This document shows, one piece after another, positions 4,824-61,652 of a DNA stretch of 64,000 nucleotides. The stretch's first letter is position 1. The number at the start of each line of letters is the position of its first letter. The notes below the pieces were generated by a model. The model saw only the letters and a list, made by a program, of their open reading frames with translations, searched no databases and was not told the DNA's origin. The DNA is from an uncultured Acidobacteriota bacterium (GTDB taxonomy: Bacteria > Acidobacteriota > Thermoanaerobaculia > Multivoradales > JBCCEF01), in the NCBI GenBank assembly GCA_963730155.1, contig CAVSQV010000002.1:960944-1024943 (forward strand), read 5' to 3'. The translations under genes were made by a program, and so were the position numbers.

Positions 4824-5033
4824 CGCCTCGGCGCCCGGCTCCACCGGCCCGGCCGTGCGGCTCCCGTCGAGTCGCCGGCCGGGCCGCTGCCGTTTGGGGC
4901 CGCCGGCTGTTTCGGCCGCCGCCGCACCGATTGCCGTGGTGCGGCATGGCCTGGTATGATTTGCCGTAGTGCGGCAAACTCGACCGACCCGAGGTCTTGA
5001 CGAAACCGGGTCTTCCAAGAAGGGGGTCCGACC

Positions 5034-6952
5034 ATGGCACACCGAGAAGTCACCGAAAAGGAAGCGATGGAGGTTGCGGAGGCCTCCCGCGAGAAGGAGT
5101 GGAAGCAGCCGAGCTTCCTCCGCGAGCTCTTCCTCGGCAACTTCCGGCTCGACCTGATCCACCCCTACCCGCTGCCGCCGACCGAAGAGGAGGAGCGGCC
5201 GGAGTTCCGGGCCTTCTACGAGGCGTTCAAGGAGCTGCTCCGCCAGGAGGTCGATCCGGTCGCGATCGACGCCACCGGCGAGTACCCCGAGTCGTGGTCG
5301 ACGGCCTGCGCAAGCTCGGCGCCTTCGGCATGAAGATCCCGAAGGAGTACGGCGGCCTCGGCTTCACCTCGGTCGAGTACCAGAAGGTGATGCAGCTGGT
5401 CGGCAGCGTCGACGGCAACGTCTCGGCGCTGCTCTCGGCCCACCAGTCGATCGGCGTGCCGCAGCCGCTCAAGCTCTTCGGCAGCCCGGAGCTGAAGAAG
5501 AAGTACCTGCCGCGCTGCGCCGCCGGCGCGATCTCGGCCTTCGCGCTGACCGAGCGCAGCGTCGGCTCCGACCCGGCGCGCCTGCTGACCACCGCCGAGA
5601 AGACCCCCGACGGCGACTACATCCTCAACGGCGAGAAGCTCTGGTGCACCAACGGCACGCTCGCCGAGCTCCTGGTGGTCATGGCCGCGACCCCGAGACC
5701 AAGGCGATCAGCGCCTTCGTCGTCGAGACCGACTGGCCCGGCGTCAAGGTCGAGCACCGCTGCCACTTCATGGGGCTGCGCGCGCTCGCCAACGGCGTGA
5801 TCAGCTTCAAGGACGTGCGCGATCCCGGCCGAGAACCTGATCGGCAAGGAGGGGCATGGTCTCAAGATCGCGCTCATCACGTTCAACGACGGGCGCCTGT
5901 CGCTCCCCAACGGCTCGGTCGGCACCGCCAAGGCGTGCCTCGAGATCTGCCGCAAGTGGTCGAACGAGCGCGTGCAGTGGGGCAAGCCGATCGGCAAGCA
6001 CGAGGCGATCGCCCACAAGCTCGCCGACATGGCGGCCAACACCTTCGCCATGGAGTCGCTGGTCGGGCTCGCCACCGCGATGGCCGACCGCGGCGACTTC
6101 GACATCCGCCTCGAGGCGGCGGCGGCCAAGGAGTGGAACACGGTCCGCGCCTGGCAGATCGTCGACGAGACGATGCAGATCCGCGGCGGCCGCGGCTACG
6201 AGACCGAGACCTCGCTGGCCGCCCGCGGCGAGGAGCCGATGCCGGTCGAGCGCGTGATGCGCGACTACCGCATCAACCAGATCTTCGAGGGCTCGAGCGA
6301 GATCATGCACCTGTTCATGGCGCGCGAGGCGGTCGACAAGCACCTCGAGGTCGCCGGCGCCCTGATCGATCCCAAGAAGGGGCTGTCCGAGAAGCTCGCC
6401 GCGCTGCCGACGATCGGCGCCTTCTACGCCACCTGGTATCCGACCCGCTGGCTCGGCTGGGGGCACTTCCCGCGCTACCGCGAGTTCGGCGACCTCGCCG
6501 GCCACCTGCGCTTCGTCGAGCGCAGCTCGCGGCGGCTCGCGCGCGCGGTCTTCCACGGCATGGTGGTCCACGAGGCGAAGCTCGAGCACAAGCAGGCCTT
6601 CCTGTTCCGCCTGGTCGACATCGCGATGGAGCTCTTCGCGATGGCGACCTCGGCCTCGCGCGCCCACGCGATGACCGAGCGGCGCCACCCCGACGCCGTC
6701 AAGGCCCGTGAGCTGGCCGACCTCTTCTGCCGCATGTCGCGCCGCCGCGTCCGGGCGCTCTTCCGCGAGCTGTGGTCGAACGACGACGTGCGCAAGTACA
6801 AGACCGCCCAGAACGTCCTCGCCGGCCGCCACGTCTGGTTGGAGTCGGGGATCATGGGCCTCGGCGCCACCGCCAGGTCGCTCCAGCCGCCGACTCCGCT
6901 CGAGAGGCGTGGCGAGCGGGTACGGGCGGCACGGCCGGTGGCCGCGGGCTAA
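5034..6952 (+). pseudogene. Long-form acyl-CoA dehydrogenase, reading frame broken 3 times (about 5290, 5695, 5820)
   Basis: A continuous ACAD sequence is recovered only by joining four frames. MAHREVTEKEAMEVAE...GEYPES | VVDGLRKLGAFGMKIPKEYGGLG...LWCTNGTLAELLVVMAATP | ETKAISAFVVETDWPGVKVEHRCHFMGLRALANGVISFKDVR | IPAENLIGKEGHGLKIALITFNDGRLSL...IRGGRGYETE...INQIFEGSSEIM... to the stop at 6952. Confidence 0.8.
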
Positions 6953-7064: not shown

Positions 7065-7361
7065 ATGAGCAGGTTCGATCTCGAACGGTTCACCACGGAC
7101 TACGAGCGAGATCCGGCTCTGGCGGAAGGGTTCGCCGAGCTCGGTGACGACCCCCAGGGTTGGGCTCGGTTGGCGCGGGAGAAGGGCTACGAGATCACCC
7201 CGGACGAGGCCGGGAGCCTGCTCTCGAGCCGCCGCGAGCTCTCCGACGACGAGCTGGACGAGGTCGCCGGAGGCTGGGACGGAGACACCACCGGCGGAAG
7301 CGGAGGCAGCGGCGGCGGGACCGGCGACGGGACCGGCGGCGGCACGGGTGGCGGCCCCTGA
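7065..7361 (+). CDS. Nif11-like-leader RiPP precursor peptide with Gly-rich core
   Basis: 98 aa, GGAGG RBS 7 nt upstream. The leader MSRFDLERFTTDYERDPALAEGFAELGDDPQGWARLAREKGYEITPDEAGSLLSSRRELSDDELDEVAGG matches the Nif11-type leader pattern, ending in LSDxELxxVAGG (double-glycine cleavage motif). Predicted core: WDGDTTGGSGGSGGGTGDGTGGGTGGGP. Confidence 0.8.
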   Translation: MSRFDLERFTTDYERDPALAEGFAELGDDPQGWARLAREKGYEITPDEAGSLLSSRRELSDDELDEVAGGWDGDTTGGSGGSGGGTGDGTGGGTGGGP

Positions 7362-12026: not shown

Positions 12027-12182
12027 ATGGCTGAAAACACCCCCAAGACCAAGGAAGAAATGGAGGAGCGCCTCGAAGATCTGCAGCTCGATCCGGAAGA
12101 CCTCGACGCCGTGGCCGGTGGCGCGACCTGCCAGACCTGCTACAGCTCGTACCAGCCCAAGGACGTGGAGGTCGAGTCCTGA
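12027..12182 (+). CDS. Double-glycine-leader RiPP precursor peptide (51 aa, not in ORF track)
   Basis: AGGAGG at 12016-12021, ATG at 12027, TGA at 12180-12182. Translation MAENTPKTKEEMEERLEDLQLDPEDLDAVAGGATCQTCYSSYQPKDVEVES: acidic leader ending DLDAVAGG (compare ELDEVAGG in the 7065 precursor). 19-aa core ATCQTCYSSYQPKDVEVES is rich in Cys/Ser/Thr/Tyr. Lies immediately upstream of the modification genes. Confidence 0.7.
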   Translation: MAENTPKTKEEMEERLEDLQLDPEDLDAVAGGATCQTCYSSYQPKDVEVES

Positions 12183-12226: not shown

Positions 12227-12261
12227 GTGCGGCTTCCTGGCTGATTGCCAGGAAGCCGCAC
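12227..12261 (+). terminator. Perfect 15-bp stem-loop between precursor gene and enzyme genes (attenuator / transcript-stabilising hairpin)
   Basis: GTGCGGCTTCCTGGC (12227-12241), loop TGATT, GCCAGGAAGCCGCAC (12247-12261): exact reverse complements, 45 nt after the precursor stop. No U-tract follows, so it is not a canonical intrinsic terminator. Confidence 0.5.
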
Positions 12262-12307
12262 CGGAAGCCGAACGTCTCACTTCTGGTTAGAGAGGGCCCA
12301 GACCGTC

Positions 12308-13870
12308 GTGTACGTCGACCCCGTCAACGACAGCGTTGAACGTGCGTGGACTCACAATGTTCCTTTCGGTGACTGCCGGTACATCCGTCAACGGGTGATC
12401 GACAGCGTCAGCCGGCGGCTCGATCTTGCACAGCGCTTGTTCCCCCAGGCGACGCCTGTTCTGGAGCGACTCCGATCTCTGGATGACGCGACCGCCGCTC
12501 GTGTGCTTGAGCACCCGTTCCTGCGCTCCGTGGTGCTTGCCGCAATCCGGCACCTGAAACACCCGTGGGAAACCCTTACACACGAGCAAGTCGAGCAGTA
12601 CCTCGAACAGCTCGGGATCCTGCTCGCCGAAGGCTGGAGAGGCGGGAAGCTCTACTCGCTCTCCCTGCTGCTGGAAGAAGAGGATGACGAGGGTGCGGCC
12701 CGACACAAGCTCTGGCAGTGGACTGGCGAACAGGGAGATCGGACGCTCACGGGTATTACCCCCACGGTCTTCCTGAAGAACAGCCCCAACTGCGTCTTTC
12801 ATCGTCCCACCGAGGAGGAGGCCGGGAACCTCCGCCAGGGGATTGCGCTTCTCCGGGAGCTCTTCCCTCTCCTGGCGCCCAGCGTCCTGCGTCATGTCGA
12901 TGTCATCGCACTCGTCAGTGCCAAGCCCGCTCGCGGCGAGGCCAGGCTTCCCGACGGCAACCCCCTCACTACCGATCCGCTCCTCTCCTCTACCGCCGAT
13001 ACATCGCCCGGGGTGGTCTTCGTCAGCCCCAGTGTGCTGACCAACCCCTGGTATATCGCGGAAATCATCCTGCACGAGGGCCTTCATTCGAAGCTGTATG
13101 ACGTGATGGCGACACACAACCTGCTTCGGCCGAACTACACGAATGAAGAGTCTGCCCAGATCCACCCGCTGTGGCACAGATCTTCCGTATCGTGGGATGT
13201 GCACCGCTCCCTCTTCGCCATGCACGTCTATGCCCACCTCGCCCTGTTCTTCCAGCGGGTGGCCAGGAACTTCGATGCGCTGGCACCACGCTTCGGACCT
13301 CTCCATGTCATCGATGCACGGCTGTCGATGCGCCGCTCGCTCGATCGAGCGCACTTCCTCGGAATGAAGCTGGCGGAGGTCGGCACCCGGGACCTGGGAG
13401 CCGCTGGCCAGCTCCTGCTTGCGCAGCTTCAGGAGATGCTGCTGGTGCTCGATGGCGCGTACGGAGAGGATGCTTCCGTGAATGCCGCGCCCAGGCCCGA
13501 AGAGGTGGCTCAGCGACTCGTCGGGGACCTGTATGCTCGACAGACCCTGGCGCTGGAGCGCGTCCTCGCCCACTGGCGCACGATCTCCTCGCACCCCCAG
13601 GGCGCCGGCATCCCCGCCCTCCTCACCGAAGTCGCCCAACTGGACGCCGCGCTCGTTGGGCAGGATGCGGCCATACCGCCGATCTCCGCTGAGGTCAAGG
13701 ACACGCTGAGAGTACTCATCGACCTCCGGAAGCAGGTGGCCCATCGGTTTATGAACGGGGGGGCATCGCCCAGCCGCTCGGAGATCAGCCTCGACACCCT
13801 GATGGACTCCGCCGACCGCTCGGGAAGCCTGTTCGCTCGAGCCAACATCACGATCGAACTCGACCCCTGA
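12308..13870 (+). CDS. HExxH-motif domain protein 1 (TIGR04267-like; candidate peptide-modifying metalloenzyme)
   Basis: Track ORF 12245..13870. The TTG at 12245 lies inside the hairpin, so GTG at 12308 is preferred. Motifs: VPFGDCRYIRQR, LLRELFPLLAP, NPWYIAEIILHEGLHSKLYD (HExxH), HPLWH, HVYAHLALFF. Paralogous to the next gene. Confidence 0.8.
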   Translation: MYVDPVNDSVERAWTHNVPFGDCRYIRQRVIDSVSRRLDLAQRLFPQATPVLERLRSLDDATAARVLEHPFLRSVVLAAIRHLKHPWETLTHEQVEQYLEQLGILLAEGWRGGKLYSLSLLLEEEDDEGAARHKLWQWTGEQGDRTLTGITPTVFLKNSPNCVFHRPTEEEAGNLRQGIALLRELFPLLAPSVLRHVDVIALVSAKPARGEARLPDGNPLTTDPLLSSTADTSPGVVFVSPSVLTNPWYIAEIILHEGLHSKLYDVMATHNLLRPNYTNEESAQIHPLWHRSSVSWDVHRSLFAMHVYAHLALFFQRVARNFDALAPRFGPLHVIDARLSMRRSLDRAHFLGMKLAEVGTRDLGAAGQLLLAQLQEMLLVLDGAYGEDASVNAAPRPEEVAQRLVGDLYARQTLALERVLAHWRTISSHPQGAGIPALLTEVAQLDAALVGQDAAIPPISAEVKDTLRVLIDLRKQVAHRFMNGGASPSRSEISLDTLMDSADRSGSLFARANITIELDP

Positions 13871-13880
13871 GGATTGTCTC

Positions 13881-15002
13881 TTGACGAGCTACGCCGAGAC
13901 ACAGACAGCATGGCTATCTGCGGAGAAGCAGCTGGCTCAGGACGTGCCGTTTGGCTCCGCCGACTACATCCGCGAGCGAGCTGCCGCGAGCTACCACCGT
14001 CGCCTGGAGTTGCTGGGCGAGCACCTACCCGCGGCCGAGCGGTTCGCCGAGGCGCTCGGCCCCGCCGCGAGCAGCGACTCCATCCAGGTCTTTGCGGATC
14101 CGGTCGTCCGGGGTTCCATCGACGATCTTCTTCGGGCCTTCAGGTTCGCCGGAGAGCGGAAGCCCAATGACGACCAGCTCGAGCTCTTCGCGTACTACAG
14201 CGCGCGTCTCGACGAGCTGAAGCGCGATGCCGCGGACACCGCTGACAGCTTTCGACAGGAGCTCCTCGACCGGCCGATTCGATATTGGTCCGATGCGAGC
14301 GCCCGGACGGTCCGTGACCGCGCCTTCGCTGCGATGTTGCGGCGGCACCTGCCGGGGGCGCGCGTCTACGAGGCGGAGGCGGAGACGGAGGCCGCCATCA
14401 GCCAAGGCTTGGCGCTCCTCCAGGAGCTGCTGCCGCTGGCTGCACACAGCGCCGTGTCTCATCTTCACTTCGTCATAGTCGACGAGTTCTACGACAAGGT
14501 GGGTTCCGCGACGATCGCCCCCATTCTCGGGACGATCTTTCTGGCTCGAAGCACGCTACGGAGCCCCTGGACCATCGCGGAGGGCATCCTCCACGAGTGC
14601 ATGCACCTCAAGTTCGTGGAGCTTGAGCATACGCATTCGCTCCTGCCCCGGGGTTACTCCGAGCAGGCCTCTCCTCGTCTTCATCCGCCCTGGCACCCCG
14701 AGACGGAGGCCTGGCCGATGAACCGGGCGCTCACGGCGGCCCATGTCTACGTCACCCTCGCCCTGTACTCGGTGGCCTCCGAAGCAGCGGCGCCGGAGTT
14801 TCAGGCGCGCTATGGTCCGTGCCGGCGTTCGCAGCTTCTCGTTGATCCGATCGCTGCCGGCGCACGCGCGCGCAGTCTCATCGACCTCGCGTCGGGGCAC
14901 CCCGAGAGCCTGGGCAAGGCAGGGCGGGCGTTCCTCGAATGGATGAGGGATGTCCTTGAGAAGCTGGCGGCAGGGCCCACCGTGCTGCGCAAGGCTGTCT
15001 GA
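13881..15002 (+). CDS. HExxH-motif domain protein 2 (paralog of the preceding gene)
   Basis: TTG at 13881, 7 nt after GAGGA (13869-13873). 373 aa. Motifs: VPFGSADYIRER, LLQELLPLAAH, SPWTIAEGILHECMHLKFVE (HExxH), HPPWH, HVYVTLALYS. Collinear with protein 1 but lacks its C-terminal extension of about 150 aa. Confidence 0.8.
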   Translation: MTSYAETQTAWLSAEKQLAQDVPFGSADYIRERAAASYHRRLELLGEHLPAAERFAEALGPAASSDSIQVFADPVVRGSIDDLLRAFRFAGERKPNDDQLELFAYYSARLDELKRDAADTADSFRQELLDRPIRYWSDASARTVRDRAFAAMLRRHLPGARVYEAEAETEAAISQGLALLQELLPLAAHSAVSHLHFVIVDEFYDKVGSATIAPILGTIFLARSTLRSPWTIAEGILHECMHLKFVELEHTHSLLPRGYSEQASPRLHPPWHPETEAWPMNRALTAAHVYVTLALYSVASEAAAPEFQARYGPCRRSQLLVDPIAAGARARSLIDLASGHPESLGKAGRAFLEWMRDVLEKLAAGPTVLRKAV

Positions 15003-17396: not shown

Positions 17397-20300
17397 TCAG
17401 ACCTGCTGCCGCTCGACCATGCGGCGGAAGGTGCCCCGGCCCCCGGCCAGCTCGTCGTACGTCCCAGCCTCCACCACCCGACCCCGTTCCAGCACGTAGA
17501 TGCGGTCGGCGTTCTGGATCGTGCTCAGGCGGTGGGCGATGACGATGCGCGTCGCCTTCAGGCCCTCCAGGCTGTCGGCTGACGATCTCCTGCGTGCGGT
17601 TGTCGAGGGCGCTCGTCGCCTCGTCGAAGAGGATGATCCGCGGCCGGTGGACGATCGCGCGGGCGATCAGCAGGCGCTGCTTCTGGCCGCCGGAGAAGGT
17701 CTCCGCCGCCCTCGCTGATCACGGTGTGCATGCCCATCGGCATGGCCTTGATGTCCTCCTCCAGGCCGGCCATGCGCGCCGCCTCCCAGGCGTCGTCGAT
17801 CCCCAGGTTGCGAGCTGCCGACGATGTTGGAGAAGATGTCCCCGGCCATCGGCCGGCCGTTCTGGAGGACGACGCCGATCTGGCGGCGCACCGACTGGAG
17901 GGCGAGCGCGGCGAGGTCCTGGCCGTCGAAGTAGATCGAGCCCGGCGGTCGGCTTCTCGAAGCCGAGGATCAGCCGCAGGCAGGTCGACTTGCCGGCGCC
18001 CGAGGGCCCGACCAGGGCGATGAACTCCCCGGGCCGGGCCCGGAACGAGACGTCGTCGAGGATCAGCGGCCCGTCCTCCTGGTAGCGGAAGGAGACGTGG
18101 CTGAACTCGATCTCGCCGGCCAGCTCGCCGGCCTCGGCCTTGGATCGGATCGACCTCCGGGGACTGCCTCGAGGATCGGCTGCAGGCGCTCGTAGACCGG
18201 CACCATGGCCAGCACGCTGGAGAAGATCGCCGATCATCGTCAGCGCCGCCGCCAGGAACTGGCCGAAGGCGGCGTTGAAGGCCAGGAACTCGCCGATCGA
18301 CAGGCGATCTCCTCCGGCGGAGAAGCCGACCATCGGCGAAGATGGCCAGCGAGGTGAGCACGCCGTAGACGGCGTTGAACGCGGCCTGGACGTTGGCGAC
18401 CCGCTGCGCCGCGACGGCCTGCTCGCCGCTGCTCGGCGAAGCGCTCGGCCCAGCGGCGCGAAGGCGCGCGTGCTCGGCGCCGCCGACCCGGAGCTTGGCG
18501 ATGCCGTGGATCAGGCCGAAGAGGAGGCTCGCGATCTTGCCCTGCGAGGCTCGAGGAAGCGGCGCTGGTGGCGGAGCTGGAGGTAGGCGCAGGCCGGTGG
18601 TCACCGCCACCAGCAGCGGCCACCAGGCCGGTCGCCACCAGGGCCAGCCGCCAGCTGTAGTAGAAGAGCAGCGCCGAAGCTGAAGACGGAGAAGACCGCC
18701 GCCAGGACCGAGGTCAGGACGTTGCCCGGTCAGCAGCTCGCGGATGGTGTCGATGCCCAGCGAGCGGTTCGCCAGGTCGCCCACGGTGAAGCGGCGGAAG
18801 AAGGACACCGGCAGCGACAGCAGCCGGTCCCAGACGGCGGCCTGGAGCGAGCCGTCCATCTTGCCGCCGAGGCGCAGCACCGCGATGCTGCGGGTCACCT
18901 GGAAGACCGGCGCGGCGAGCGCGGCGAGCGATCAGGGCCAGGGTGATCTGGACGAGGCGGGCGCGGTCGGCCGCCGGGATGACGTTGCCGAAGAGCTGGC
19001 CGGTCAGGATCGGCACCAGCAGCCCGAGCAGGCCGCCGCCGAGCCCCATCAGCAGGATGGTCGCGAGGTCGCGCCGGCGGCCCGCGAAGGCGAGGCCGCA
19101 GGAGGTCCCGCAGGCGCAGCGGCCGCTCGGGCAGCGGCGGATAGAACATGTACGCCTCGCCGGCGAGGCTCTCCGCCACGGCCGGCGTCGACCGGCGTGC
19201 GGCGTCCGCTCGACCGGATCGACCAGCTCGTAGCTGCGGGGCGAGGTGGGCAGCAGGGCCACCGGCCGGCCGGCGCTTCTGCTGCGTCGTCCGCGGACCG
19301 GAAGCGCCACGAGCGGGCCGTTGTCGCGGCGCCACCAGTCGTCGCGCAGGATCACCCGCCGGTGGCGGATCCGCGACGCCGCGCAGATCCGGGCGAGCCG
19401 GTCTCCGCTGGCGGCAGCTCGGCCGTCGCGTCCGGCGGGCTGCGGATGCTCGATGCCCTGGACCTCGCCGACCAGCCGGCAGGCGGCGAGCAGGGGGTCG
19501 GAGCCGGCGTCGAGCGGCGCGCCCGCGGCGGTCCGGGCGCCGAGCACCGAGGCCAGCCGGGCGTAGCGCCGTCTCCAGGGTCGGGCGGTCGAGGTCGGTC
19601 TTGCGGCCGAGCCGCTCCCGCTCGTCGCTGCGCGTCCTCCTCGCGCAGCCGGTGCGACGTAGGCGAGCAGCAGGCGGTGGAAGCGGTCGAGCCCCTCCCA
19701 GAGCGCCGCCGCTCCGTAGCAGGCGCTCGCGGTCGACGCACGAGAGGGATCCGCACCTCGCCGTCGCTGACCAGCCAGGTCTCGTCGGGGACCGGCAGGA
19801 GGAAGTCCTCGGGCGGCGAGGGCCAGGTCGTCGCCGGCCGAGGAAGCGGAGCGACCCGTCCAGGTGGCGCACCCAGACGACGCCGTCGGGCGGTGCGCAG
19901 CGCGCCGTCCCCACCTCGGCCAGGCGCACCTCGGCGCCGGGCCGCAGCTCCTGGAAGACCTTCGGCGGCCGGCCGCGGACGACCTCGCCGGTCAGCCGCC
20001 GCACCCAGCCGTCGAGCCAGCGGGTCAGCGCCGGCGGCGAGCTCCGTCCGGCGCGCCAGCTCGCGGAGGGCGGCGGCGGGCAGCCGGAGCAGCCGGGTGC
20101 CGGGGTGGCCCACCGCCAGGAGGGCGCTCCGGGGCTCGCGCGCGTCGCCGACGCGCCGCTCGACGGCCTGGAACGGCGGAGCTGCCGGCCGAGGTCGAGG
20201 CTCGCCACGAGCTCGCCGCCGTCGAGGGTGGCGAGATGCTGCGGACGCCGTCGCCCGCGCCGGCGCCGCTCCCGCCGCGCGGCGGCGCACGGCGAAGAGC

Positions 20301-20439
20301 TCGACCCGCCCGGTGCGCACCAGCCAGGCCGCTCGCGCCGGCGCCGAGCCGCAGCGGCGGGTTGCCGCCGGCCTCGATCTCCTCGCGCCGTCGGCTCGGC
20401 GAGGCAGGCGGTCAGGTCCAGGTCGGCCGGGGTGCTCAT
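17397..20439 (-). pseudogene. NHLM/NHLP-type bacteriocin export ABC transporter, permease/ATPase subunit with long N-terminal regulatory-like domain; heavily frame-disrupted
   Basis: ATG at 20439, TGA at 17397-17399. Real sequence is spread over all three frames. Recognisable pieces: [180 protein letters not shown] (Walker A), [14 protein letters not shown] (signature), [11 protein letters not shown] (Walker B), [30 protein letters not shown]. Four frame changes traced in the last 520 nt alone. Confidence 0.8.
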
Positions 20440-20446
20440 CGGTCGC

Positions 20447-22699
20447 TCACTCGGCTGCGATCAGCCGGGCGTAGGGGCCTTCCGCACGCGCCTTGAGCTC
20501 GTCGTGGGTCCCGCGCTGCGACGACCTTGCCGCGCTCGAGGACGATGATCTCGTCGGCGTCGCGGATGGTGCTCAGGCGGTGGGCGATGATCAGGCAGGT
20601 GCAGCCGCGCCGCCGCAGGCTCTCGTCGATCCGCTTCTCGGTCGTCGGGATCGAGCGCGCTGGTCGCCTCGTCGAGCACCAGGAGCGTCGGCCGGCCGAC
20701 CAGCGCGCGGGCGATCTCCAGCCGCTGGCGCTGGCCGCCGCTCAAGTTGGCGCCGCCCTCCTCGACCGGGCTGTCGTAGCCGCCGGGCCGGGCCGCGATG
20801 TCGTCGTGGATGCAGGCGTCCTTGGCCGCGGCCACCACCTCCGGGCAGCGGCACCGTCGCGTCCCACAGCGTCAGGTTCTCGCGCACCGTCCCCTCGAAC
20901 AGGAAGACGTTCTGGTCGACCACGGCCAGCGAGTTGGTCGAGCACGCCGCGGCGGGATCTCGGCGCGGCTGCCGGCCGTCGAACAGGATCTCGCCGCTCC
21001 CACGGCTGGTAGAGCCCGGTGACCAGCCGGGCGACCGTCGACTTGCCGCTCCCCGAGCCGCCGACCAGGGCGACGCGGGCGCCGGGCTCGAGCCGCGAGG
21101 TCGAGGCCCTCGATCAGCGGCGGGTCGAGCCGGCTGTAGCCGAAGGTGACGCCGCGCAGCTCCAGCCGGCCGGCGAGCTTGACCGGCAGCTCCGCGGGCG
21201 GCTCCTCCGGCGCCGCCCCCGGTCGGCCGCGGTCGCGCGGTCGACCTGGTAGCGCAGCACGTCGTCGAGCCGGTTCATGTCCCCCTCGACCACCTGGAGC
21301 CGGCCGCCGAGGCTGACCAGCCGGTTGACCGGCGCGATGAAGCTGCGCCATCAGGACCTGGAAGGCCACCAGCCCGCCGAGCGTCAGGTCGCCGTCCATC
21401 ACCCGCAGGCCGCCGAGGCCCAGGATCAGCGCGGTGTTGACCGCCGGCGAGCAGCGGCGGCACGGCGTCGAGCATCTGGGTGTAGCGCTCCAGCTCCTGC
21501 CGGCGCGTTGACCACCTTGGCCTGGTAGCCGGCCCAGCGGGCGAAGAGGTCCGCCTCGCCGCCGGTCGCCTTCAGGGTCTCGATGATCTGCAGGCCGCCG
21601 ATCGCCGTGCCCATGGAGCTTGCCCTGGTCCTGGAGCAGGCGGCGGTTGCCGTCGACCCGCTTGCGCGAGACCCAGCGCAGGGCCGCGACGTTGAGCGAG
21701 ACGACGCCGATGCCCGACCAGGGTCAGCAGCGGGTCGTACTGGACCATCAGGACGGCGAAGAAGACGATCATCAGCGCGCCCAGGGCGTTGGTCGCGAGG
21801 TCGCGCGACGAGGAGCTGGGCCACGCGGTCGTTGATCGCCGACCCGCGAGCTGATGTCGCCGGCGAAGCGCTGGGTGAAGAACTCGATCGGCAGGCGCAG
21901 CACGTGCCAGAGGAAGCGGCTCGAGCCGGCCACCGCCAGCCGGGTCTCCAGGCGCAGCAGGTAGGCCTGCTGCAGCCAGGTCAGGAGCGCCGGTCAGCGA
22001 GCGCGGCGAGCGCCCATGCCGAGGAGCAGCGGCGGCAGCCAGTCGCGGCGGCCCTCGAGCAGGACGCTCGTCGACGAAGACCTTGGAGAAGACCGGCGAC
22101 GACCAGCCCCGGGACGACCAGGGCCAGGCCGGCGAGGCAGCACGAAGGCGAGCGCCGCCGCCGGCGCCGGCGAGCCGGCGGCGCGAGCGCCGGGAGCAGG
22201 CTGCGGCGGCGCGCCGCCGCGTCTCGAACTCCGGACCCGGCTCGAAGGTCAGCACCACGCCGGTGAAGCGCCTGGTCGAGCTCCTCCTCGCGTCACCGCG
22301 CGCGGCCCGGCGGCCGGGTCGTTCAGGTGGACGCCGCCCCTTGCGGAAGCCCTCGAGGACCACGAAGTGGTTGAAGTTCCAGTGCAGGATCATCGGCGGC
22401 TGCGAGCGTCGCGCAGGGCCTGCCGGCTCCTTCTTGAACCCCTTGGCCTCCAGGCCGTAGCGGCGCGCCGCCTTGACCATGTTGCTCGGCCTTGCTGCCG
22501 TCGCGCGAGACGCCGCAGGCGATGCGCAGCTCCTCGAGCGGCACCCAGCGGCCGTAGTGGGCGAGGACGATGGCGAGGGCCGCCGCGCCGCACTCGACCG
22601 CCTCCATCTGGAGGACGGTCGGGCGTGCGCACCGGCCGCGGCGAGCGCGGTCGCCGCCGCCGCGGCCGAGCCAGCGGGCGAGGAGCGCCGGAGCTTCAT
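20447..22699 (-). pseudogene. NHLM/NHLP-type bacteriocin export ABC transporter with N-terminal C39 peptidase domain (PCAT); heavily frame-disrupted
   Basis: ATG at 22699 overlaps the HlyD stop (ATGA). TGA at 20447-20449, 7 nt before the next gene. C39 domain: [88 protein letters not shown] part: [32 protein letters not shown], and in another frame [24 protein letters not shown]...[18 protein letters not shown]. Many frame changes. Confidence 0.8.
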
Positions 22700-23967
22700 C
22701 CCAGCCGGACCCCAGCTTCTCGCGCAGCCAGGGCATGAGCAGGCGGATCGGACGCTCCTGCGCGGACGACGACGTCGCCGCCGGCCAGGGTGCCGCTGCT
22801 GATCTCGACGTCGGGGCCGCGTCGAGGAGGACCAGCGGAAGCCGGTCGGCGTCGACGGGTCGCGCGCCAGGGCGACGTTGACCTGGATCGGCGGTCCCTC
22901 CTCCATCAGCCGCGTGACCAGCGCCTCGTTGCCGAGGAGGCGCAGTCATGCCGCGCGCGGTCGAGGGGTACTCGGCGACCCAGGTGACCGTGCCGAGCAT
23001 CGAGCCGTACTCCTCGCGCTTGACGGTCGAGGGCGAGATCCGCACCTCCATGCCGGGCTGGACCTGCTTGCCCGGCCGGCGGGCACGAAGAGCACCGCCA
23101 TCAGCTCCTCGGAGATCACCTCCAGGTTGAGGATCGGCGTGCCGGGGTTGACCACGTCGCCGCGGTCCGACCAGCAGCTCGAGCACGCGGCCGGCGTGCG
23201 GCGACGTCACGCGCACGCTCTCCTCGAGGCGCGCCTGGCAGCTCGCGCAGCTCGAGCTCGAGGTCGCGGATCTCGGCCGCGCCGCGTCTCGAGCTGCTGG
23301 TCGACCTGCTGCTCGGCCTCCAGCCGCTCGAGCTCGAGGCCGTTGAGCTCCAGCCGCCGGGCGCGCGAGCTGGTCCTGGGCGGTGTTGAGGCTCCTGCTC
23401 GGTGGCGAGCAGGGTCTGCTTGGTGATCAGACCGTCCTGGAGGAGGTCGCGCTCGGCCGCGACCCGCTCGCGCGCCAGCAGTGCGATCTGGCGGCTCGAG
23501 GGCGACGATGCTCTGCTCCAGGTTGGCCCGCTGCTGGGCGAGGTCGCCGGCCGCGCAGGCGCCGCTGCTCGCCGGCGTAGCGCAGCAGGTCCGCGGTACT
23601 CCGCCTGCAGCCGGCGAGCCTGCTGCGCTCGGCTGTCCTCGATCTGCCGCAGCAGCTCCTCCTGGCGGATGCGCGCCACCACCTGCCCCTTCTCGATGAC
23701 GTCGCCGACCGCCACCAGCAGCTCCTCGACCTGGCCCGGTGCTCGGCGGCCACCAGCTCGACGACGCCGCCCTGGCGCAGCAGGATCCCCTCGCCCCGCG
23801 CCTCGGTGGGGATCGAGCCGAAGACGCCCCAGGCGAGCGACCCGGCGAGGAGCACGCCCCAGCGCCCCGAGGGCGAGCCAGCCGCGTCGGGTCGGTGACC
23901 TGCAGGAGCTGGTCGAGCTGCTCCGGCGAGGAGAGCCGCTCGAGCGGCCACCTTGCGGAAGAGTCAT
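22696..23967 (-). pseudogene. HlyD-family membrane fusion protein of the NHLM bacteriocin secretion type; frame-disrupted
   Basis: ATG at 23967 overlaps the TolC stop. Pieces across frames: [251 protein letters not shown]. Confidence 0.75.
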
Positions 23968-25512
23968 GGCTCGCCTCCTGGAGGTGGGAGGGTGGTCAGG
24001 TCGGCCGCCGCGATCGTCCCCGACTCGCCGGCGCCGCCGATCAGGGTGCCGGTCTCGAAGCGCAGCTCGGCGAGGGCGAGCGCCAGCGCGAGCTGCGCCG
24101 AGACCCGGTTGCGCCGGGCGGCGGTCAGGCGGTCGCGCTGGCGAGATCACGTCGATCAGCGTCGAGCGTGCCGGCCCGCAGCTTCTTCTCCTCGTTCTCG
24201 ACCGCCCGCTCGAACAGGCCGACCGCGGCGACCGCCCGCTCGAGATGCTGGGCCGACCGCGCCACCGCGTCGAGCGCGACCGGCACGTCGGCGCCGATCT
24301 GCCTTGGCGGTCCGCTCGACCGCGAGCGCGCTCTGCCGGACGCCGGCCTCGGACTGGATCAGCGCGCCCCGGCCTCGCGGTTCGCGTCGGCCAGGAGAAG
24401 CTGAAACCGAGCTGCCCGGAGACGCCCGGGCACGTTGCGGAAGAGCGGCGTGAAGAAGTCGCCGGCGCCGCCGCCCTCGACCAGGCCGGAGTAGCTGGGG
24501 GTGAAGCACCAGGTCGAGCTCGGGGCAGGAGGGCGTTTCGGCGGCGCGCGAGAAGGATCTCCGACGCCGCCAGGCGCTCGCGGGCCGCCGCGAGGTCGGC
24601 GCGCAGCGCCAGGGCCCGGGGCCGTACTCCTCGGCCCGCGCGTGCGGCACCGCCGCGGCGTCGAGCTCGGGGAAGGACGCCGTAGGGAGCGGCAGGGCGC
24701 GCGACGCTGCCGGGCTCCAGCCCGATCTCCCGCCCGAGGTCCTGGCGCGCCTCGAAGAGAGCCTGCTCGCCGCCGATCCGGGCCGCCTCCTTGGCGACCA
24801 GGTTGGCCTCGACCTGGACGAGCTCGGCCGCCGGCGTGACGTCGGCCTCGATCAGGCGCCGGGTGGTCGCCAGGAGGTCGCGCGAGCTGGCCTCGCTGGC
24901 GCGCAGGACCTCGAGGTCCTCGGCCGCCGCGCGCACCGTCCAGTACTGGAAGATCACCGCCCGCAGCCGGAGCGCGACGGTCTGGCGGAGGTCGAGGCCG
25001 CTCGCCGCCATCTCGCGCTCGGCGGCGCGCTCGCCGGCGGCCACCGCCGCGCGCCCGCGCCCGCGCAGGAGCGGCTGGCGGAACGTGAACCCGACGCTGG
25101 CGCTGTTGATCGCCGGCGCGTCCTCCTCGGTGCGGTCGAGCAGCACCTCGGGGCTCACCAGCAGGCCGTTGCGGAACAGCGCATCGACGCCGGCCGTGCC
25201 GCTCACCACCGTGGATTCGCTCGCCTCGCCGTCGGCCCCGGGGAGGTCGACCTCGCGCACCCCCAGGCTGCTGGTGACCAGCGGGTCGAAGAGGCCCGAG
25301 GCGAACAGCAGCGAGCCGCGAGAGGCGTCGAGCCGGCTCTCGGCGAGCGCGATGTCGGGATCGTGGGCCAGCGCCAGCTCGACCGCCGCGAGCAGGTCGA
25401 GGCCTCCGGCGGGCGCGCCCGGGGGCGGCGCCGCGAGAGCCGCGGCCGGAATCAGCAGCAGGGCCAGCGCCGTGGCCCTCTGGCGAAGACCCTTCCTCGC
25501 TTTCACGAGCAT
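23964..25512 (-). pseudogene. TolC-like outer membrane efflux protein; N-terminal ~270 aa in one frame, C-terminal half frame-disrupted
   Basis: Signal peptide MLVKARKGLRQRATALALLLIPAAALAAPP. OEP repeats: LLAAVELALAHDPDIALAESRLDASRGSL..., RAAEREMAASGLDLRQTVALRLRAVIFQYW. After about 24700 the frame changes repeatedly. Later pieces: LRADLAAARERLAASEILLARRRNALLPELDL, FTPLFRNVPG, GALIQSEAGVRQSALAVER, TLIDVI, AELRFETGTLIGGAGESGTIAAADLTTLPPPGGEP-stop. Confidence 0.7.
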
Positions 25513-25528
25513 TGGCTAAGCTACATCC

Positions 25529-26716
25529 GTGCAACGCTCGTTGCAAGCCGCCCTGCGCGCCGCCGGCGTGGCCGAGGCCGACCTGGCCGAGCTCGCCGGC
25601 TACACCGCGCGCCGCTTCGAGCCGGCCGCCGGCGCTGCGGTCCGGGTGCCCCTGCCCGACGAACCGCTCGCCGCGGCCTGGCGCGCGTGGGCGGAGGAGG
25701 CGCGCGGCGAGGGCGCCGCCGCCGTGCTGCGCCGGGCCCTGGTGCCGCTCTCGTTCCCGGTCCGCGCCGGGATCAGCGCCACGCCGGACTACCTCGCCGC
25801 CACCCGGCAGGGGGTCGCGCCCGAGCGCCTCGCCGGTGCCACGGGCCTGCGCCTCGAGCGGCCGGAGGCGGTCGATCTCGAGCTCCACCCCAGCATCGCC
25901 GGCCGGGTCCCGGTCCTGACGGTGCGCCATCGCGTCGATTTCGTGACCCTGGTGCAGGCCCTGACCCGCCGCAACGAGCCGGTGCCGGTGCCCGATGCGC
26001 AGGGCGCGTCGATGGTCGCGGGCCTGACCAACTGGGAGCGGGTGCGCGCCCTGCGCCGGGAGTGGGAGGCGCGGCCGCGCGGCGCGGGTGACTCGCCGAC
26101 GTGGGAGGAGGCGTTCGAGCGCCTCCGCGAGCGCAAGGAGTTGTACCAGGACCGGCTGATCCTGCTCAGCGACGGCCCATACAGCGGCGTGCCGGCGGCC
26201 GAGCTGGGGCTCGCCGAGGACGACTGGCGGCGGCTGTCGCTGGTGCTCCGCCGCGAGCACGAGTGCACCCACTACTTCACCCGCCGCGCCTACGGCTCGA
26301 TGCAGAACCACCTGCTCGACGAGCTGCTCGCCGACTACGCCGGGATCGCCGCCGCCGCCGGGTCGTTCCGCGCCGATTGGCTGCTGCGCTTCCTCGGGCT
26401 CGCCGGCCCGGGCGAAACGCGGAGCCGGCGCTTCGACATCTACCGCGGCACCCCGCCGCTGGCCGACGGCGCCTTCCGCGCCCTCGAGCGGGTGGCCGCG
26501 TGGGCGGCGGCGAACCTCGAGGCGTGCGAGCGCGCCATTTGGCCGGCGGGGCCGCCGGGCGCCGCCGAGCGGGCGGCGATGGTCCAGGCGGCGGCTGTCC
26601 TGGGCCTCGACGAGTTGGCAGCGCCCGGCGGCGCGGAGCGCCTCGAGCGGGCGTGCGCGGCGATTCGGCCGCCCTCTGTTACTCGGGGAAGGCCCGGCCG
26701 GCGAGACGGTTCTTGA
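25529..26716 (+). CDS. Conserved-looking hypothetical protein containing an HECTH (HExxH) motif
   Basis: Intact 395-aa ORF (GTG start, only 16 nt from the divergent TolC start). Normal composition, e.g. LTVRHRVDFVTLVQALTRRNEPVPVPDAQGASMVAGLTNWERV, LYQDRLILLSDGPYSG, LVLRREHECTHYFTRRAYGSMQNHLLDELLADYAGI. No family recognised. Confidence 0.55.
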   Translation: MQRSLQAALRAAGVAEADLAELAGYTARRFEPAAGAAVRVPLPDEPLAAAWRAWAEEARGEGAAAVLRRALVPLSFPVRAGISATPDYLAATRQGVAPERLAGATGLRLERPEAVDLELHPSIAGRVPVLTVRHRVDFVTLVQALTRRNEPVPVPDAQGASMVAGLTNWERVRALRREWEARPRGAGDSPTWEEAFERLRERKELYQDRLILLSDGPYSGVPAAELGLAEDDWRRLSLVLRREHECTHYFTRRAYGSMQNHLLDELLADYAGIAAAAGSFRADWLLRFLGLAGPGETRSRRFDIYRGTPPLADGAFRALERVAAWAAANLEACERAIWPAGPPGAAERAAMVQAAAVLGLDELAAPGGAERLERACAAIRPPSVTRGRPGRRDGS

Positions 26717-35313: not shown

Positions 35314-37273
35314 CTACGCCGCGTCCGCGGCGGTCTCCTCCTCCTGCGCCTCCTCCCACCCCAGGATCTCGTCGATCGTGCCGCGGCTGACCGCGTGGTA
35401 GCCGGGACGGGCGCGCTCGTAGACCTCGAGCGCCCAGGCCTTGCCCTCCGGGGTCGCCGCCAGTGCGCCGTAGAGCGGGGAGAGGAACTTGCGCCGGCCG
35501 ACCCGGAGCAGGAACTCCTCGAGCGCCGGGTAGGCCGGCCGGTAGTCCGCGGCGATCGCGCGCAGGAACCACTCGGCGCGGATCTCGGAGTTGCGGGCGG
35601 CGAGGTCGAAGCGCCGGTCCAGCTCGGCGAGGAGCGCCTGCGGCGTCTCCTCGGGGAGGCCGCGCAGGAAGTGCAGCCACTCATGGGTGGTCCAGGCGTC
35701 GGTCGCCAGCTCCGCGGTCGGGCGCCCACCCAGCCACGCCTCGCGCTGGGCGTCGACCGCGGCGAAGCGGTCGGAGGCCGGCGCCGCCAGGTTCTCGGGC
35801 AGGCCGGGCTGGTAGATCCAGCGCTCGACGCCGATCGCTTCCACCTCCTCGGGGCTCAAGAGCTCGCGCTCCAGGTAGTCGACGAAGTCGGCGGTGGTGA
35901 TCGACTGGAACGCGAAGTGGTCGAAGTAGCGCGCGAGGAAGGCGTCCCAGCGCTCGCGGCCGACCGCCGCTTCGAGGGTGCGGAGGAAGAAGCGCCCCTT
36001 CTCGTAGGCGATGTCGTCAGCCCGTCGTCGGGATCGCGGCCGGCGAGGTCGAGGTGGAGGCGGGTGTCCGGGCTCTCCGGCCCCATCTCCTCGACCGTCC
36101 CGCGGAGTTCCTGGAGCGAGAGCGCGGCGAGCATGTCGGCGTACTCGCGGCCGTACACCGCCTCCATGATCCGCCGCTTCGAAGTAGGTGGTGAACCCCT
36201 CGTTGAGCCAGAAGTCGTTCCAGGTCGCGTTGGTCACCAGGTTGCCCGACCAGGAGTGCGCCAGCTCGTGCGCGATCAGCGACACCAGCGAGCGGTCGCC
36301 GGCGATGATGGTCGGCGTGGCGAAGGTCAGCCGCGGGTTCTCCATGCCGCCGAACGGGAAGCTCGGCGGCAGCACCAGCATGTCGTAGCGCCCCCAGCGG
36401 TACGGGCCGTAGAGCTTCTCGGCCTGGTCGATCATCTGCTCGCGTGTCGGCGAACTCCGCGGCGGCCGGCTCGAGCATCGCCGGCTCGGCGTAGACGCCG
36501 GCGTCCTCGCCCAGCGGCGCGAAGCCGATGTCGCCCACCGCGAGCGCCAGCAGGTAGGACGGGATCGGCTGCGGCATGTCGAATCGGTAGACGCCGTCGG
36601 CCGAGGCCGCGGCCGGGTTGGCGGCGCTCATCAGCGCGAGGAGGCCCGCCGGCACCCGCACCGTCGCCTCGTAGGTGAAGCGCACGCCGGGGGAGTCCTG
36701 GATCGGCACCCAGGTGCGGGCCAGGATCGCCTGCGACTGGGTGTAGAGATAGGGCTGCGCGCCGCCGGCGGTCTGCGCCGGGTCGAGCCACTGGAGCGCC
36801 GCCGCGTCCGGGCTGGTCGCGTAGTCGACGTGCACCACCGCGGTGCCCGGCTCGATCGCCACGGTCAGCGGCCGGCCCAGGAAAGGCTGCCCATCGGTCG
36901 CCTCGCCGAGGGTGAAGCGCGCCGGCTCGGCGGCGCCGTCGAGCGTGACGCCGGAGATTTCGAGGTCCCGCGTGTCGAGCACCACCTCGCGCGCCCCGCC
37001 CGGGTTGTCGAGCGTCAGCGAGGCGCGCCCGGAGAGCTTCCTCGCCTCGAAATCGACCGTCAGGTCGAGCGCCAGGTGGCTCACCCGCACCTCCTCGGGC
37101 CGCGCGAAGGAGTGGGGATCGTCGGCCACCGCGGGCGGCGCCGCGGCCGGCTCGGGCTCCTCGGCGGGGCCGCAGGCGACGGCGAGCAGCGCGGCGAGGG
37201 CGAGCAGGGAGGCCGCCGGCAGGAGGCGGCGGGAGGGGAAGGTGCGGGCGTGGCGGTTCCGGCGCTGGGTCAT
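35314..37273 (-). pseudogene. M1-family (leukotriene A4 hydrolase-like) aminopeptidase lipoprotein, 3 frame disruptions (about 36440, 36175, 36015)
   Basis: Lipoprotein signal LLALAALLAVAC. GAMEN-like FGGMENP. Zinc site LIAHELAHSWSGNLV...WLNEGFTTYFE. C-terminal Leuk-A4-hydro_C-like WTTHEWLHFL. The sequence is recovered only by joining four frames of track ORFs 36017..37273, 35314..36435 and 35856..36167. Confidence 0.8.
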
Positions 37274-46885: not shown

Positions 46886-48358
46886 ATGGAACGTGGAACC
46901 CGCCCCGGCCGCGTGGGCATGATCAGCCTCGGCTGCCCGAAGAACCTCGTCGACACCGAGATGATGCTCGGCGAGCTGGAGCGCCGGGGCTACCGCATCG
47001 TCGACGACGCCGGCGAGGCCGACACGGTGATCGTCAACACCTGCGGCTTCATCGAGGAGGCCAAGCAGGAGTCGATCGACACCATCCTCGAGCTGGCCGC
47101 GGGCAAGCGCGAGAGCGGCCGAGCGCCTCCTGGTCGCCGGCTGCATGGTCAACCGCTACGGCCGCGAGCTGCCGCAGTCGATCCCCGAGATCGACGGCTT
47201 CGTCGGGCTCGACCAGCTCCGCGAGGTCGGCGACCTGGTCGCCGCCGCCACGGGCGAGGCGTTGCGCAGGCAGGCGGCGACGACAAGCTGGTCCGGCTCG
47301 GCGGCCCGCCGCTGCCGGCGCCGTCGCACATGGTCTTCGACCACACCGCGCCGCGGCGGCTGACCACCCGCGGCTACGCGCTACCTCAAGGTCGCCGAGG
47401 GGTGCAACAACCCCTGCACCTTCTGCGCCATCCCGAAGTGGCGCGGCACGCTTCCGCAGCCGCACGATCGACAGCCTGGTCGCCGAGGCGCGCGCGCTCG
47501 AGGAGCAGGGGCCCGAGGGACAGAAACTGGCCGAGCTGTACCTGATCGCCCAGGACACCACCCGCTACGGCGAGGACCTCGACCTCGGCCGCCACGGCCT
47601 GGTGCGGCTCGTCGAGGCGCTGCTCGCCGGCACCGACGTTCCCCTGGATCCGCTTCCTCTACGCCTACCCGACCACGCTCGACCGCGACCTCCTGCGACC
47701 TGATGGGGAGCGAGGAGCGCTTCGTCTCCTACCTCGACATGCCGCTCCAGCACAGCCATCCGCGAGATGCTCAAGTCGATGCGCCGCGGCGGCGACGCCG
47801 GGCGCTACCTGCGCCAGCTCGAGCGAGGCGCGCCGAGCTGGCGCCCGACGTCTTCCTGCGCACCACCTTCATCGTCGGCTTCCCCGGCGAGACCGACGAG
47901 CACTTCGAGCACCTCGTCGACTTCGTGCGCGAGGCGCGCTTCGACCACCTCGGCGCCTTCGCCTACAGCGCCGAGCCGGGTACGCCGGCGGCCGAGTTGC
48001 CCGGCGCGGTGCCGCGGGCGGTGGCGCGCCGGCGCCACCGAGCGCCTCCTCGCGGTCCAGGAGCCGATCGCCCGCGCTCAGCGCGAGCGCCTGATCGGCC
48101 GGCGGATGCGGGCGCTCGTCGAAGGCGTCCGCGAGGAGACCGAGCACCTGCTGGTCAGGCCGCCACCATGGCCAGGCGCCGGAGATCGACGGCCGCATCC
48201 TGATCAACGACGGAACCGCGCCTGCCGGGACGCTGGTCGAGGTCGAGATCACCGACGCCTACGCCGACGACCTGGTCGGCCGAGTGGTCGGCCCGGCGGG
48301 GGTAGCCGGGGTCGTGCCGGCGCCGCCGCGCGAGGCGGTCGAGGCCGCCGCCGGCTGA
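46886..48358 (+). pseudogene. rimO: Ribosomal protein S12 methylthiotransferase RimO, about ten frame disruptions
   Basis: ATG at 46886, TGA at 48356-48358. Pieces over three frames: [20 protein letters not shown]...[62 protein letters not shown] (radical SAM CxxxCxxC), [71 protein letters not shown]...[16 protein letters not shown] (TRAM). Confidence 0.8.
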
Positions 48359-59861: not shown

Positions 59862-61496
59862 ATGGCCAACGCCGTATTCACACCGCCCCCCCCAGTCAAC
59901 GAGACCGTCCGACCCTACGCCCCGGGCACCCCGGAGCGCGCCACCCTCAAGCAGCGGCTCGACCGGATGCTCGGCGAGCGAGTCGAGATCCCGGTGATCC
60001 TCGGCGGCGAGGAGGTGCGCACCGGCGACGTCGTCGAGGTGGTCTGCCCGCACGACCACGGCCACGTCCTCGCCACCGTCCACCAGGCCGGCGAGGCCGA
60101 GGTGGCGCGCGCCGCCGAGGCCGCCGCGGCGGCGTGGGGCGAGTGGTCGGAGCTGGCGTGGGAGGACCGCGCCGCGATCTTCCTGCGCGCCGCCGAGCTG
60201 CTCGCCGGGCCGTGGCGCGACACGCTTGAACGCCGCCACCATGCTCGGCCAGTCGAAGACCGCGCATCAGGCCGAGATCGACGCCGCCTGCGAGCTGATC
60301 GACTTCTGGCGCTTCAACGTCCAGTTCATGCGCCGGATCTACGAGGAGCAGCCGATCTCGGCGCGCGGCCACTGGAACCGGGTCGAGTACCGGCCGCTCG
60401 AGGGATTCGTGTTCGCGGTCACGCCCGTTCAACTTCACCTCGATCGGCGGCAACCTGCCGACCGCGCCGGCGCTGATGGGCAACACCGTGCTCTGGAAGC
60501 CGGCGTCGACCGCGGTGCTGTCGGCGTACTGGATCCTGCGCCTGCTTGATCGAGGCCGGGCTCCCGCCCGGGGTGATCAACTTCCTCCCCGGCAAGGGAC
60601 GCCACGTCGGCGACCCGGTGCTCGCCCGGCCGGAGCTCGCCGGCATCCACTTCACCGGCTCGACCGGCACCTTCCACGGCATGTGGAGGACGATCGGCGA
60701 GAACATCGCGAGCTACCGCGGCTACCCGCGGATCGTCGGCGAGACCGGCGGCAAGGACTTCGTCTTCGCCCATCCCTCGGCGGATCCCGACGAGGTGCTG
60801 GTGGCGCTCGTCCGCGGCGCCTTCGAGTACCAGGGGCAGAAGTGCTCGGCGGCGTCGCGGGCATACATCCCGCGCTCGATCTGGCGGACCCTCGAGGGCC
60901 GGCTGGCCGAGCAGGTGGGCCGGATCCGCATGGGCACGCCGCTCGACTTCCGCAACTTCATGGGCGCGGTGATCGACGCCAAGGCGTTCCGCGACATCAC
61001 CGGCTACATCGAGCATGCCCGCGCCTCGGACGACGCCGAGATCCTGGTCGGCGGCGGCAGCGACGACTCCGAGGGCTGGTTCATCGAGCCGACCGTGGTG
61101 GTCGCCCGCGACCCGCGCTTCAAGCTGATGCGCGAGGAGATCTTCGGCCCGGTGCTGACCGTCCACGTCTACGACGACGCCGATCTCGACGCCACCGTCG
61201 AGCTGGTCGACACCACCAGCCCCTATGCGCTGACCGGCGCCGTCTTCGCGCGCGAGCGGGCGGTGATCGCGCGGCTCACCAGGGCGCTACGCCACGCCGC
61301 GGGCAACTTCTACATCAACGACAAGCCGACCGGCGCGGTGGTCGGCCAGCAGCCGTTCGGCGGCGCCCGCGCCTCGGGCACCAACGACAAGGCGGGCTCG
61401 GTGGTCAACCTCCTGCGCTGGACCTCGCAGCGCGCGATCAAGGAGAACTTCATCCCGGCGACGAGCTGGGAGTACCCGTACATGCGGGAGCCGTAG
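59862..61496 (+). pseudogene. pruA: L-glutamate gamma-semialdehyde (1-pyrroline-5-carboxylate) dehydrogenase, 3 frame disruptions (about 60225, 60425, 60545)
   Basis: Joined frames: MANAVFTPPPPVNETVRPYAPGTPER...LLAGPWRDTL | NAATMLGQSKTAHQAEIDAACELIDFWRFNV...EGFVFAVTP | FNFTSIGGNLPTAPALMGNTVLWKPAS | IEAGLPPGVINFLPG...ETGGKDF...YQGQKCSAASR...EEIFGPVL...PFGGARASGTNDKAG...YPYMREP. Confidence 0.85.
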
Positions 61497-61498
61497 CC

Positions 61499-61582
61499 CC
61501 GGAGAACCCGCCTGCGGCGGATTCTCCGGCCCAGCCCCGCCTAAGAACTAGGAGCCCGTCCGATACTCGGACGGGCTCCTAG
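61499..61582 (+). terminator. Two tandem GC-rich hairpins after pruA (terminator-like)
   Basis: Hairpin 1: CCGGAGAA...TTCTCCGG (61499-61529) with an inner 5-bp extension. Hairpin 2: a perfect 15-bp stem, CTAGGAGCCCGTCCG (61548-61562), loop ATACT, CGGACGGGCTCCTAG (61568-61582). No U-tract. Confidence 0.5.
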
Positions 61583-61652
61583 CGCCCCGGGCACCGATCC
61601 GCGTCCTCGCGCGTCTAATGCACCAGGTCTCCCGACGAGACCGGTCGTACCG

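Follow-up and report, generated by a model that had tools for sequence, protein, structure and literature searches.

The window analysed here is a stretch of 64,000 nucleotides (C2:960944-1024943) of assembly GCA_963730155.1, which derives from an uncultured Acidobacteriota bacterium of the Thermoanaerobaculia, and its minus strand carries, at positions 17397-25512, four genes that together encode a putative peptide exporter. Read from the upstream end, these are a TolC-like outer-membrane channel gene (25512 to 23964, 1549 nt), a HlyD-like periplasmic adaptor gene (about 23967 to about 22697, the 3' end being inexact owing to frame errors), a gene for an ATP-binding cassette (ABC) exporter with an N-terminal C39 peptidase, here termed C39-ABC (about 22699 to 20447, closed by a TGA stop codon at 20449-20447), and a gene for a second ABC exporter lacking the peptidase domain, ABC2 (20439 to 17397). 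This is the gene order that a first-pass annotation had read from the DNA, and it was borne out by the junctions and by the protein families. The same annotation had described two ATGA overlaps and a 7-nt gap between the genes. One overlap (23967-23964), in which the TolC stop codon overlaps the next ATG, and the gap (20446-20440), which separates the C39-ABC stop codon from the ABC2 ATG at 20439, were indeed found; an ATGA is also present at 22699-22696, although amid the neighbouring frame errors it is unprovable as the true junction of the HlyD-like and C39-ABC genes. The operon is conserved in related Thermoanaerobaculia, four relatives having all four genes intact and in the same order.

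The families of the four products were determined by profile and Pfam searches with frame-corrected translations built from the window's own codons. As the first-pass annotation had proposed, the three components of an NHLM-type export system are present: the HlyD-like protein scored 377.7 bits against TIGR03794 (curated equivalog cut-off 156.2; profile positions 1-420 of 421), C39-ABC scored 1108.1 bits against TIGR03796 (equivalog cut-off 853.3; positions 3-709 of 710), and ABC2 scored 968.6 bits against TIGR03797 (cut-off 709.4; positions 2-685 of 686, matched by residues 292-981). C39-ABC contains the Pfam domains Peptidase_C39 (115.4 bits), ABC_membrane and ABC_tran, and its pieces retain the peptidase motifs with the catalytic Cys/His context, Walker A, the ABC signature, Walker B and the H-loop; after frame correction every catalytic and ATPase motif of the exporter is retained. 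ABC2 contains ABC_membrane and ABC_tran, and Pfam gave no C39 match in it. ABC2 has an N-terminal region of about 290 residues that precedes the part matched by TIGR03797, and a long region of this kind is also present in the intact orthologs, which measure 973-1050 aa; the first 430 residues or so of ABC2 matched no Pfam domain. The product of the first gene, which had been put forward as the system's own outer-membrane channel and which does head the operon, carries two OEP repeats (PF02321 twice, 113.7 bits). Since its score against TIGR01844, the type I secretion TolC subfamily, was 71.9 bits and did not reach the cut-off of 225.15, it belongs to the TolC/OEP family only in a broad sense.

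In the assembled sequence, these genes are heavily interrupted. Three-frame translation of the minus strand showed protein-like text jumping between frames through all four genes, and searches of the sequence as assembled split the TIGR03797 match into 8 pieces and the TIGR03796 match into about 9 (the latter of 20-115 bits each), all in different frames. Because stop codons are rare in every frame at about 73% G+C, lists of open reading frames (ORFs) are misleading here; for instance, a 798-codon "ORF" that starts at the TolC ATG (25512) spans real genes of three frames. The frame changes were located by a frameshift-aware protein-to-DNA dynamic programme of our own, guided by intact orthologs from one relative (G032) and, for TolC, by an 82%-identical homolog. 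Plain tblastn with intact orthologs was dropped, since at 74% G+C the wrong frames stay open and the high-scoring segment pairs cross the frame changes. The alignments placed 9 frame changes in TolC, 16 in HlyD, 26 in C39-ABC and 31 in ABC2, counts that are minimum values where protein conservation is poor and possibly slightly high in divergent stretches. The TolC changes lie between about 24702 and about 24141, so that only its first 270 codons or so share one frame, which agrees with the earlier statement that nothing except the first part of TolC is readable in a single frame. Similarly, the four frame changes that had been traced in the last 520 nt of ABC2 were recovered in its last 550 nt or so (near 17574, 17707, 17810 and 17943).

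The frame changes define a patch (17574-24702) that holds about 80 of them at a mean spacing of 89 nt and has sharp borders, with both flanks clean. Their density in the exporter, about 11 per kb, compares with 0.087 per kb outside such patches in the same genome according to a codon model, and is far beyond chance. The changes are also strongly one-directional. In 69 of them (about 85%) the net change was +1, the skipped base being C in 35 cases, G in 30 and A in 4, and the other 12 were +2/-1. The extra base was typically flanked on both sides by codons identical to those of the ortholog. No link to homopolymers was detected among the skipped bases, 46% of which adjoin an identical base compared with 43% by chance.

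Two accounts of this damage had been offered at the outset, a poorly polished sequence or a genuine relic, that is, a string of pseudogenes with real frameshifts beside intact biosynthetic genes, which the first-pass annotation had itself called biologically odd. The relic account gains some plausibility from the fact that none of the four genes is readable in one frame as assembled, and from the local character of the damage, rpoB and many neighbouring genes being clean. Decay should, however, have left other traces, and these were sought in a leave-one-out test on five sequences (the window and four intact relatives), in which departures were counted at columns where the other four sequences agree. 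The window copy departed least of the five in all four proteins: 1.0% in C39-ABC (4.9-10.8% in the intact relatives), 3.1% in HlyD (10.8-16.9%), 3.6% in ABC2 (8.1-12.8%) and 10.4% in TolC (11.1-22.1%). In the corrected frames the G+C content at third codon positions is 94-98% and the codon log-odds are the same as those of clean genes. The corrected reading contains no genuine in-frame stop codon, as the two that occur in it are alignment artefacts, one being the TolC stop at the ATGA overlap and the other falling between two closely spaced shifts, in a segment left unsettled by the alignment. Therefore, of the signs of a pseudogene looked for in the corrected genes (a surplus of substitutions where sites are conserved, stop codons, and a lost codon bias), none was observed. 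A gene in which some 26 frameshifts had really accumulated would also carry substitutions, and since none have accumulated, the frameshifts do not appear to be genuine decay. In addition, bacterial pseudogenes usually show a deletion bias, whereas here insertions are in a 6:1 excess.

The relic account is further weakened by the rest of the genome, in which the same signature recurs. The assembly comprises 6.2 Mb in 11 contigs, with a G+C content of about 73% and an estimated completeness of 79.5%. A codon table trained on long ORFs of high third-position G+C content from contig C7 was used in a Viterbi model of seven states, one for each of the six frames and one for non-coding sequence, which was run over all contigs, and same-strand switches without a nearby stop codon were counted. 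This model called 2290 frame changes genome-wide, 1776 of which fall inside 220 patches that make up 4.7% of the genome, and the density differed 70-fold, being 0.087 per kb outside the patches and 6.1 per kb within them. Calls with a net change of +1 account for 81% of all those made genome-wide. The patches are sharply bounded, and that of the exporter is among the largest. According to the path translations, patches disrupt housekeeping genes, namely rpsI-rpsB-tsf-pyrH-frr, dnaB together with alr, metG, hisS, plsX-fabD-fabG-acpP and nuoH-N, with 5 frame changes in rpsB, about 11 in dnaB and about 12 in metG, and NCBIfam searches on these translations confirmed rpsB, tsf, pyrH, frr, DnaB and MetG. 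A tblastn search of the genome for a second copy of rpsB or metG returned only the broken loci. An organism whose sole copies of rpsB and metG carried five and twelve frameshifts, respectively, would not be viable, so the patches are almost certainly errors, and the low completeness of an assembly of only 11 contigs fits such error patches. An error spread uniformly over the genome was dismissed, since rpoB is clean.

An independent assembly also bears on the exporter. Contigs assembled by Logan from run ERR12035939 were found by exact-protein look-up of two clean flanking genes, and they encode a 395-aa DUF7005 protein (on a contig of 5031 nt) and a 361-aa glycosyltransferase (on a contig of 2654 nt) that are both identical to the proteins flanking the operon. 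Beside the Logan DUF7005 gene, at the same 16-nt spacing, lies an intact OEP gene of 1542 nt that encodes 513 aa and overlaps the next gene by 4 nt. The TolC gene of the window is 7 nt longer, which equals the eight insertions minus one deletion that had been deduced from the alignment. At the other end, beside the glycosyltransferase gene and across the same 70-nt spacer, the Logan contig holds a 203-codon open ABC2 3' end that reaches the contig end, while the window frame that matches it closes within 100 codons. These gene calls are supporting evidence that the frame changes are artefacts, although not proof of it. Together with the conserved sites, the other patches and the essential genes, they led us to reject genuine decay, which we consider very improbable, and to favour strongly the poor polishing named in the first-pass annotation as its alternative.

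The same observations bear on a second possibility, in which the extra G or C bases (about one per 90 nt, in some 220 defined blocks that amount to about 5% of the genome) would be real and would be skipped by programmed frameshifting or removed from the transcripts. Its only support is the regularity of the pattern, with mostly a single extra G or C between perfectly conserved codons, and essential genes carry the changes as well; if such a process did operate, the extra bases in rpsB, metG, dnaB and other genes would point to a bacterial recoding or editing system without precedent. Nevertheless, no common sequence context was seen around the sites, the TolC gene of the independent assembly is intact at the DNA level and 7 nt shorter, and the low completeness score fits simple error. 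To our knowledge, no bacterial mechanism skips or removes bases at such a density, and this explanation is therefore regarded as extremely unlikely.

A third possibility, a variant of the artefact account with another technical cause than plain lack of polishing of long-read sequence, is that heterogeneous strains or low coverage in a metagenome assembly produced a faulty consensus in the patches, with collapsed variants that were mis-polished. This would agree with patches that are sharply bounded and scattered, and the fact that the Logan contigs break off inside the exporter patch may mean that coverage there is poor or heterogeneous. The G+C content of the patches, examined as a sign of short-read dropout, was not raised (0.733 against 0.733 for the genome), so that a coverage dropout driven by G+C is not obvious. 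A strong one-directional +1 bias is, however, what a systematic error of base-calling or consensus would give more typically than a mixture of strains, and we judge an origin in strain mixture or low coverage to be improbable to much the same degree as genuine decay.

The reading that we prefer, and consider very probably correct, is that the locus encodes a functional and conserved four-component peptide exporter, and that the roughly 80 frame changes are single-base errors in an unpolished patch. Several points weigh against it. The errors are patchy and not uniform, as the 4.3-kb rpoB gene with its single clean frame of 1436 codons illustrates. G/C homopolymers of at least 5 bases are 2.5-4 times rarer in the patches than genome-wide, and insertions without a homopolymer link, together with this depletion of long G/C runs, do not match the textbook error profile of any platform that we can name. 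Frame correction guided by orthologs biases the junction codons towards similarity, which affects only about 80 of some 2650 codons. The comparison with the Logan contigs was one of gene calls and lengths, and 1542 nt is one of the few lengths that frame arithmetic allows. Finally, when five corrected TolC variants and the 203-aa C-terminus of ABC2 were looked up as exact sequences, no match was obtained, a negative that is uninformative because the junction residues are uncertain. The 513-aa Logan protein was also absent from the results of a homolog search with the corrected TolC, whose best match was 82% identical, and no near-identical relative was obtained in any protein search.

Taken together, these results indicate that the frame changes, mostly an extra G or C, are almost certainly absent from the organism and belong to one of the roughly 220 patches that stayed unpolished in a metagenome-assembled genome (MAG) of long-read style, with an origin that probably lies in sequencing or polishing. 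The locus is then an ordinary case of a known export system and offers little biological news; its practical value is a warning on the assembly, about 5% of which consists of sharply bounded blocks of indel errors. Any call of a "pseudogene", a "split gene" or a "degraded cluster" in this genome needs to be checked against the patch map first, and this applies also to findings at 47.1-48.2 kb and 60.2-64 kb of the window. The gene cluster for a ribosomally made, post-translationally modified peptide (RiPP) that lies near the exporter is accordingly best regarded as served by a functional export route.

The candidate substrates of this route are encoded on the plus strand of the window. A 98-aa precursor of the Nif11 type (7065-7361), which lies 10 kb from the exporter, scored 38.2 bits against TIGR03798 (match 7065-7274), above the cut-off, and also matched Pfam Nif11; it is the sole TIGR03798 match above the cut-off in the genome. 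Its leader, which ends in ...ELSDDELDEVAGG, precedes a core rich in Gly and Thr. A second candidate precursor, of 51 aa (12027-12182), was recognized as an ORF translation with a double-glycine motif read directly from the sequence; its leader ends in ...EDLDAVAGG and its core is ATCQTCYSSYQPKDVEVES, so that VAGG closes the leader in both peptides. The first-pass annotation had described such systems as defined with Nif11/NHLP precursors; here the associated precursor is of the Nif11 type. No match to TIGR03793, the model of NHLP-type precursors, was found in the genome, although the same search matched no control genome and the absence is therefore unproven. Directly after the 51-aa peptide come two ORFs that resemble paralogs, one of 541 aa (12245-13870) and one of 373 aa (13881-15002), both on the plus strand; neither matched Pfam, and both are candidates for novel enzymes of modification in the RiPP locus.

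Based on the protein families, the C39 domain of the first ABC protein would cleave the leaders of the Nif11-type and 51-aa precursors after VAGG, the two ABC proteins would power transport, the HlyD-like adaptor would span the periplasm, and the TolC-like protein would provide the outer-membrane exit as in type I secretion. That these two precursors are cleaved and exported by this particular exporter is suggested by the VAGG ends of their leaders and by their proximity.

The TolC gene is bordered by an intact DUF7005 gene (25529-26716, plus strand; 403 bits against PF22541), which is divergent from it with 16 nt between the two start codons. Elsewhere in the window, a dense error patch with about 10 frame changes (47117-48155, plus strand) lies in a gene like those of RimO/MiaB-type radical-SAM methylthiotransferases, an identity assigned by eye from the path translation only (motif CNNPCTFC), and the ribF-like gene that comes after it is clean. 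Another patch, with about 17 frame changes (60221-64000, plus strand, and beyond the window end; C2:1022826-1025505), begins in an aldehyde/pyrroline-5-carboxylate (P5C)-dehydrogenase-like gene and crosses a large gene for a VIT/vWA-like secreted protein. Smaller clusters of 2-3 frame changes each were observed at 5693-5816, where they split an acyl-CoA dehydrogenase, identified by Pfam, into ORFs 4997-5797 and 5972-6949, and at 36017-36443 in an M1 aminopeptidase-like gene. Clean second copies of patch sequence were also sought within the genome, and the only useful pair came from an inverted duplication at C3:3459503-3473085 of this genome (G000), close to where contig C3 ends. In one pair of its arms, of 1.3 kb, the identity is 99.4% and the differences are seven 1-nt indels and a single mismatch, and a further pair has 32 gaps and an identity of only 90%; the structure looks like a fold-back assembly artefact.

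With respect to known cases, the assembly resembles long-read assemblies and MAGs that are rich in indels, where genes are broken by frameshifts and the estimated completeness falls as a result (PMC9262707, PMC8103633): 1-nt indels fragment its ORFs, its completeness is 79.5% despite 11 contigs, and the copies of the C3 repeat differ in the same manner. It is unlike them in that the errors are not evenly spread and lie in about 220 sharp patches, and in that they are mostly insertions with no clear tie to homopolymers. As for the exporter itself, a transport cluster of TIGR03794, TIGR03796 and TIGR03797 has been tied to NHLP/Nif11-type precursors by phylogenetic profiling (Haft, Basu and Mitchell 2010, PMC2887384). 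The locus described here agrees with that cluster in having all three families above their cut-offs, adjacent and tightly coupled genes and a Nif11-type precursor nearby. It differs in that no NHLP (TIGR03793) precursor was found, in that ABC2 has about 290 extra N-terminal residues, and in that a TolC-like gene, kept in four relatives, heads the operon.

ABC transporters of the PCAT/AMS type, such as those of the LahT type, cleave double-glycine leaders (PMC6363468). C39-ABC likewise unites a C39 domain, a permease and an ATPase in one polypeptide, and the leaders of its candidate substrates end in VAGG; in contrast to PCATs, the system described here adds a peptidase-less ABC protein, a HlyD adaptor and a TolC channel, a Gram-negative tripartite layout known in this case from sequence. 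With type I secretion (HlyB-HlyD-TolC) it shares the combination of an ABC protein, a membrane-fusion adaptor and a TolC-family channel. Nevertheless, the ABC proteins scored 343-369 bits against TIGR01846 (HlyB type) and the adaptor scored 64.6 bits against TIGR01843, and because all of these scores are far below the cut-offs the exporter genes are not members of the HlyB-HlyD families. Moreover, whereas type I systems handle RTX proteins with a C-terminal signal, the predicted substrates here are peptides with an N-terminal leader, and the gene for the TolC-family channel lies within the operon.

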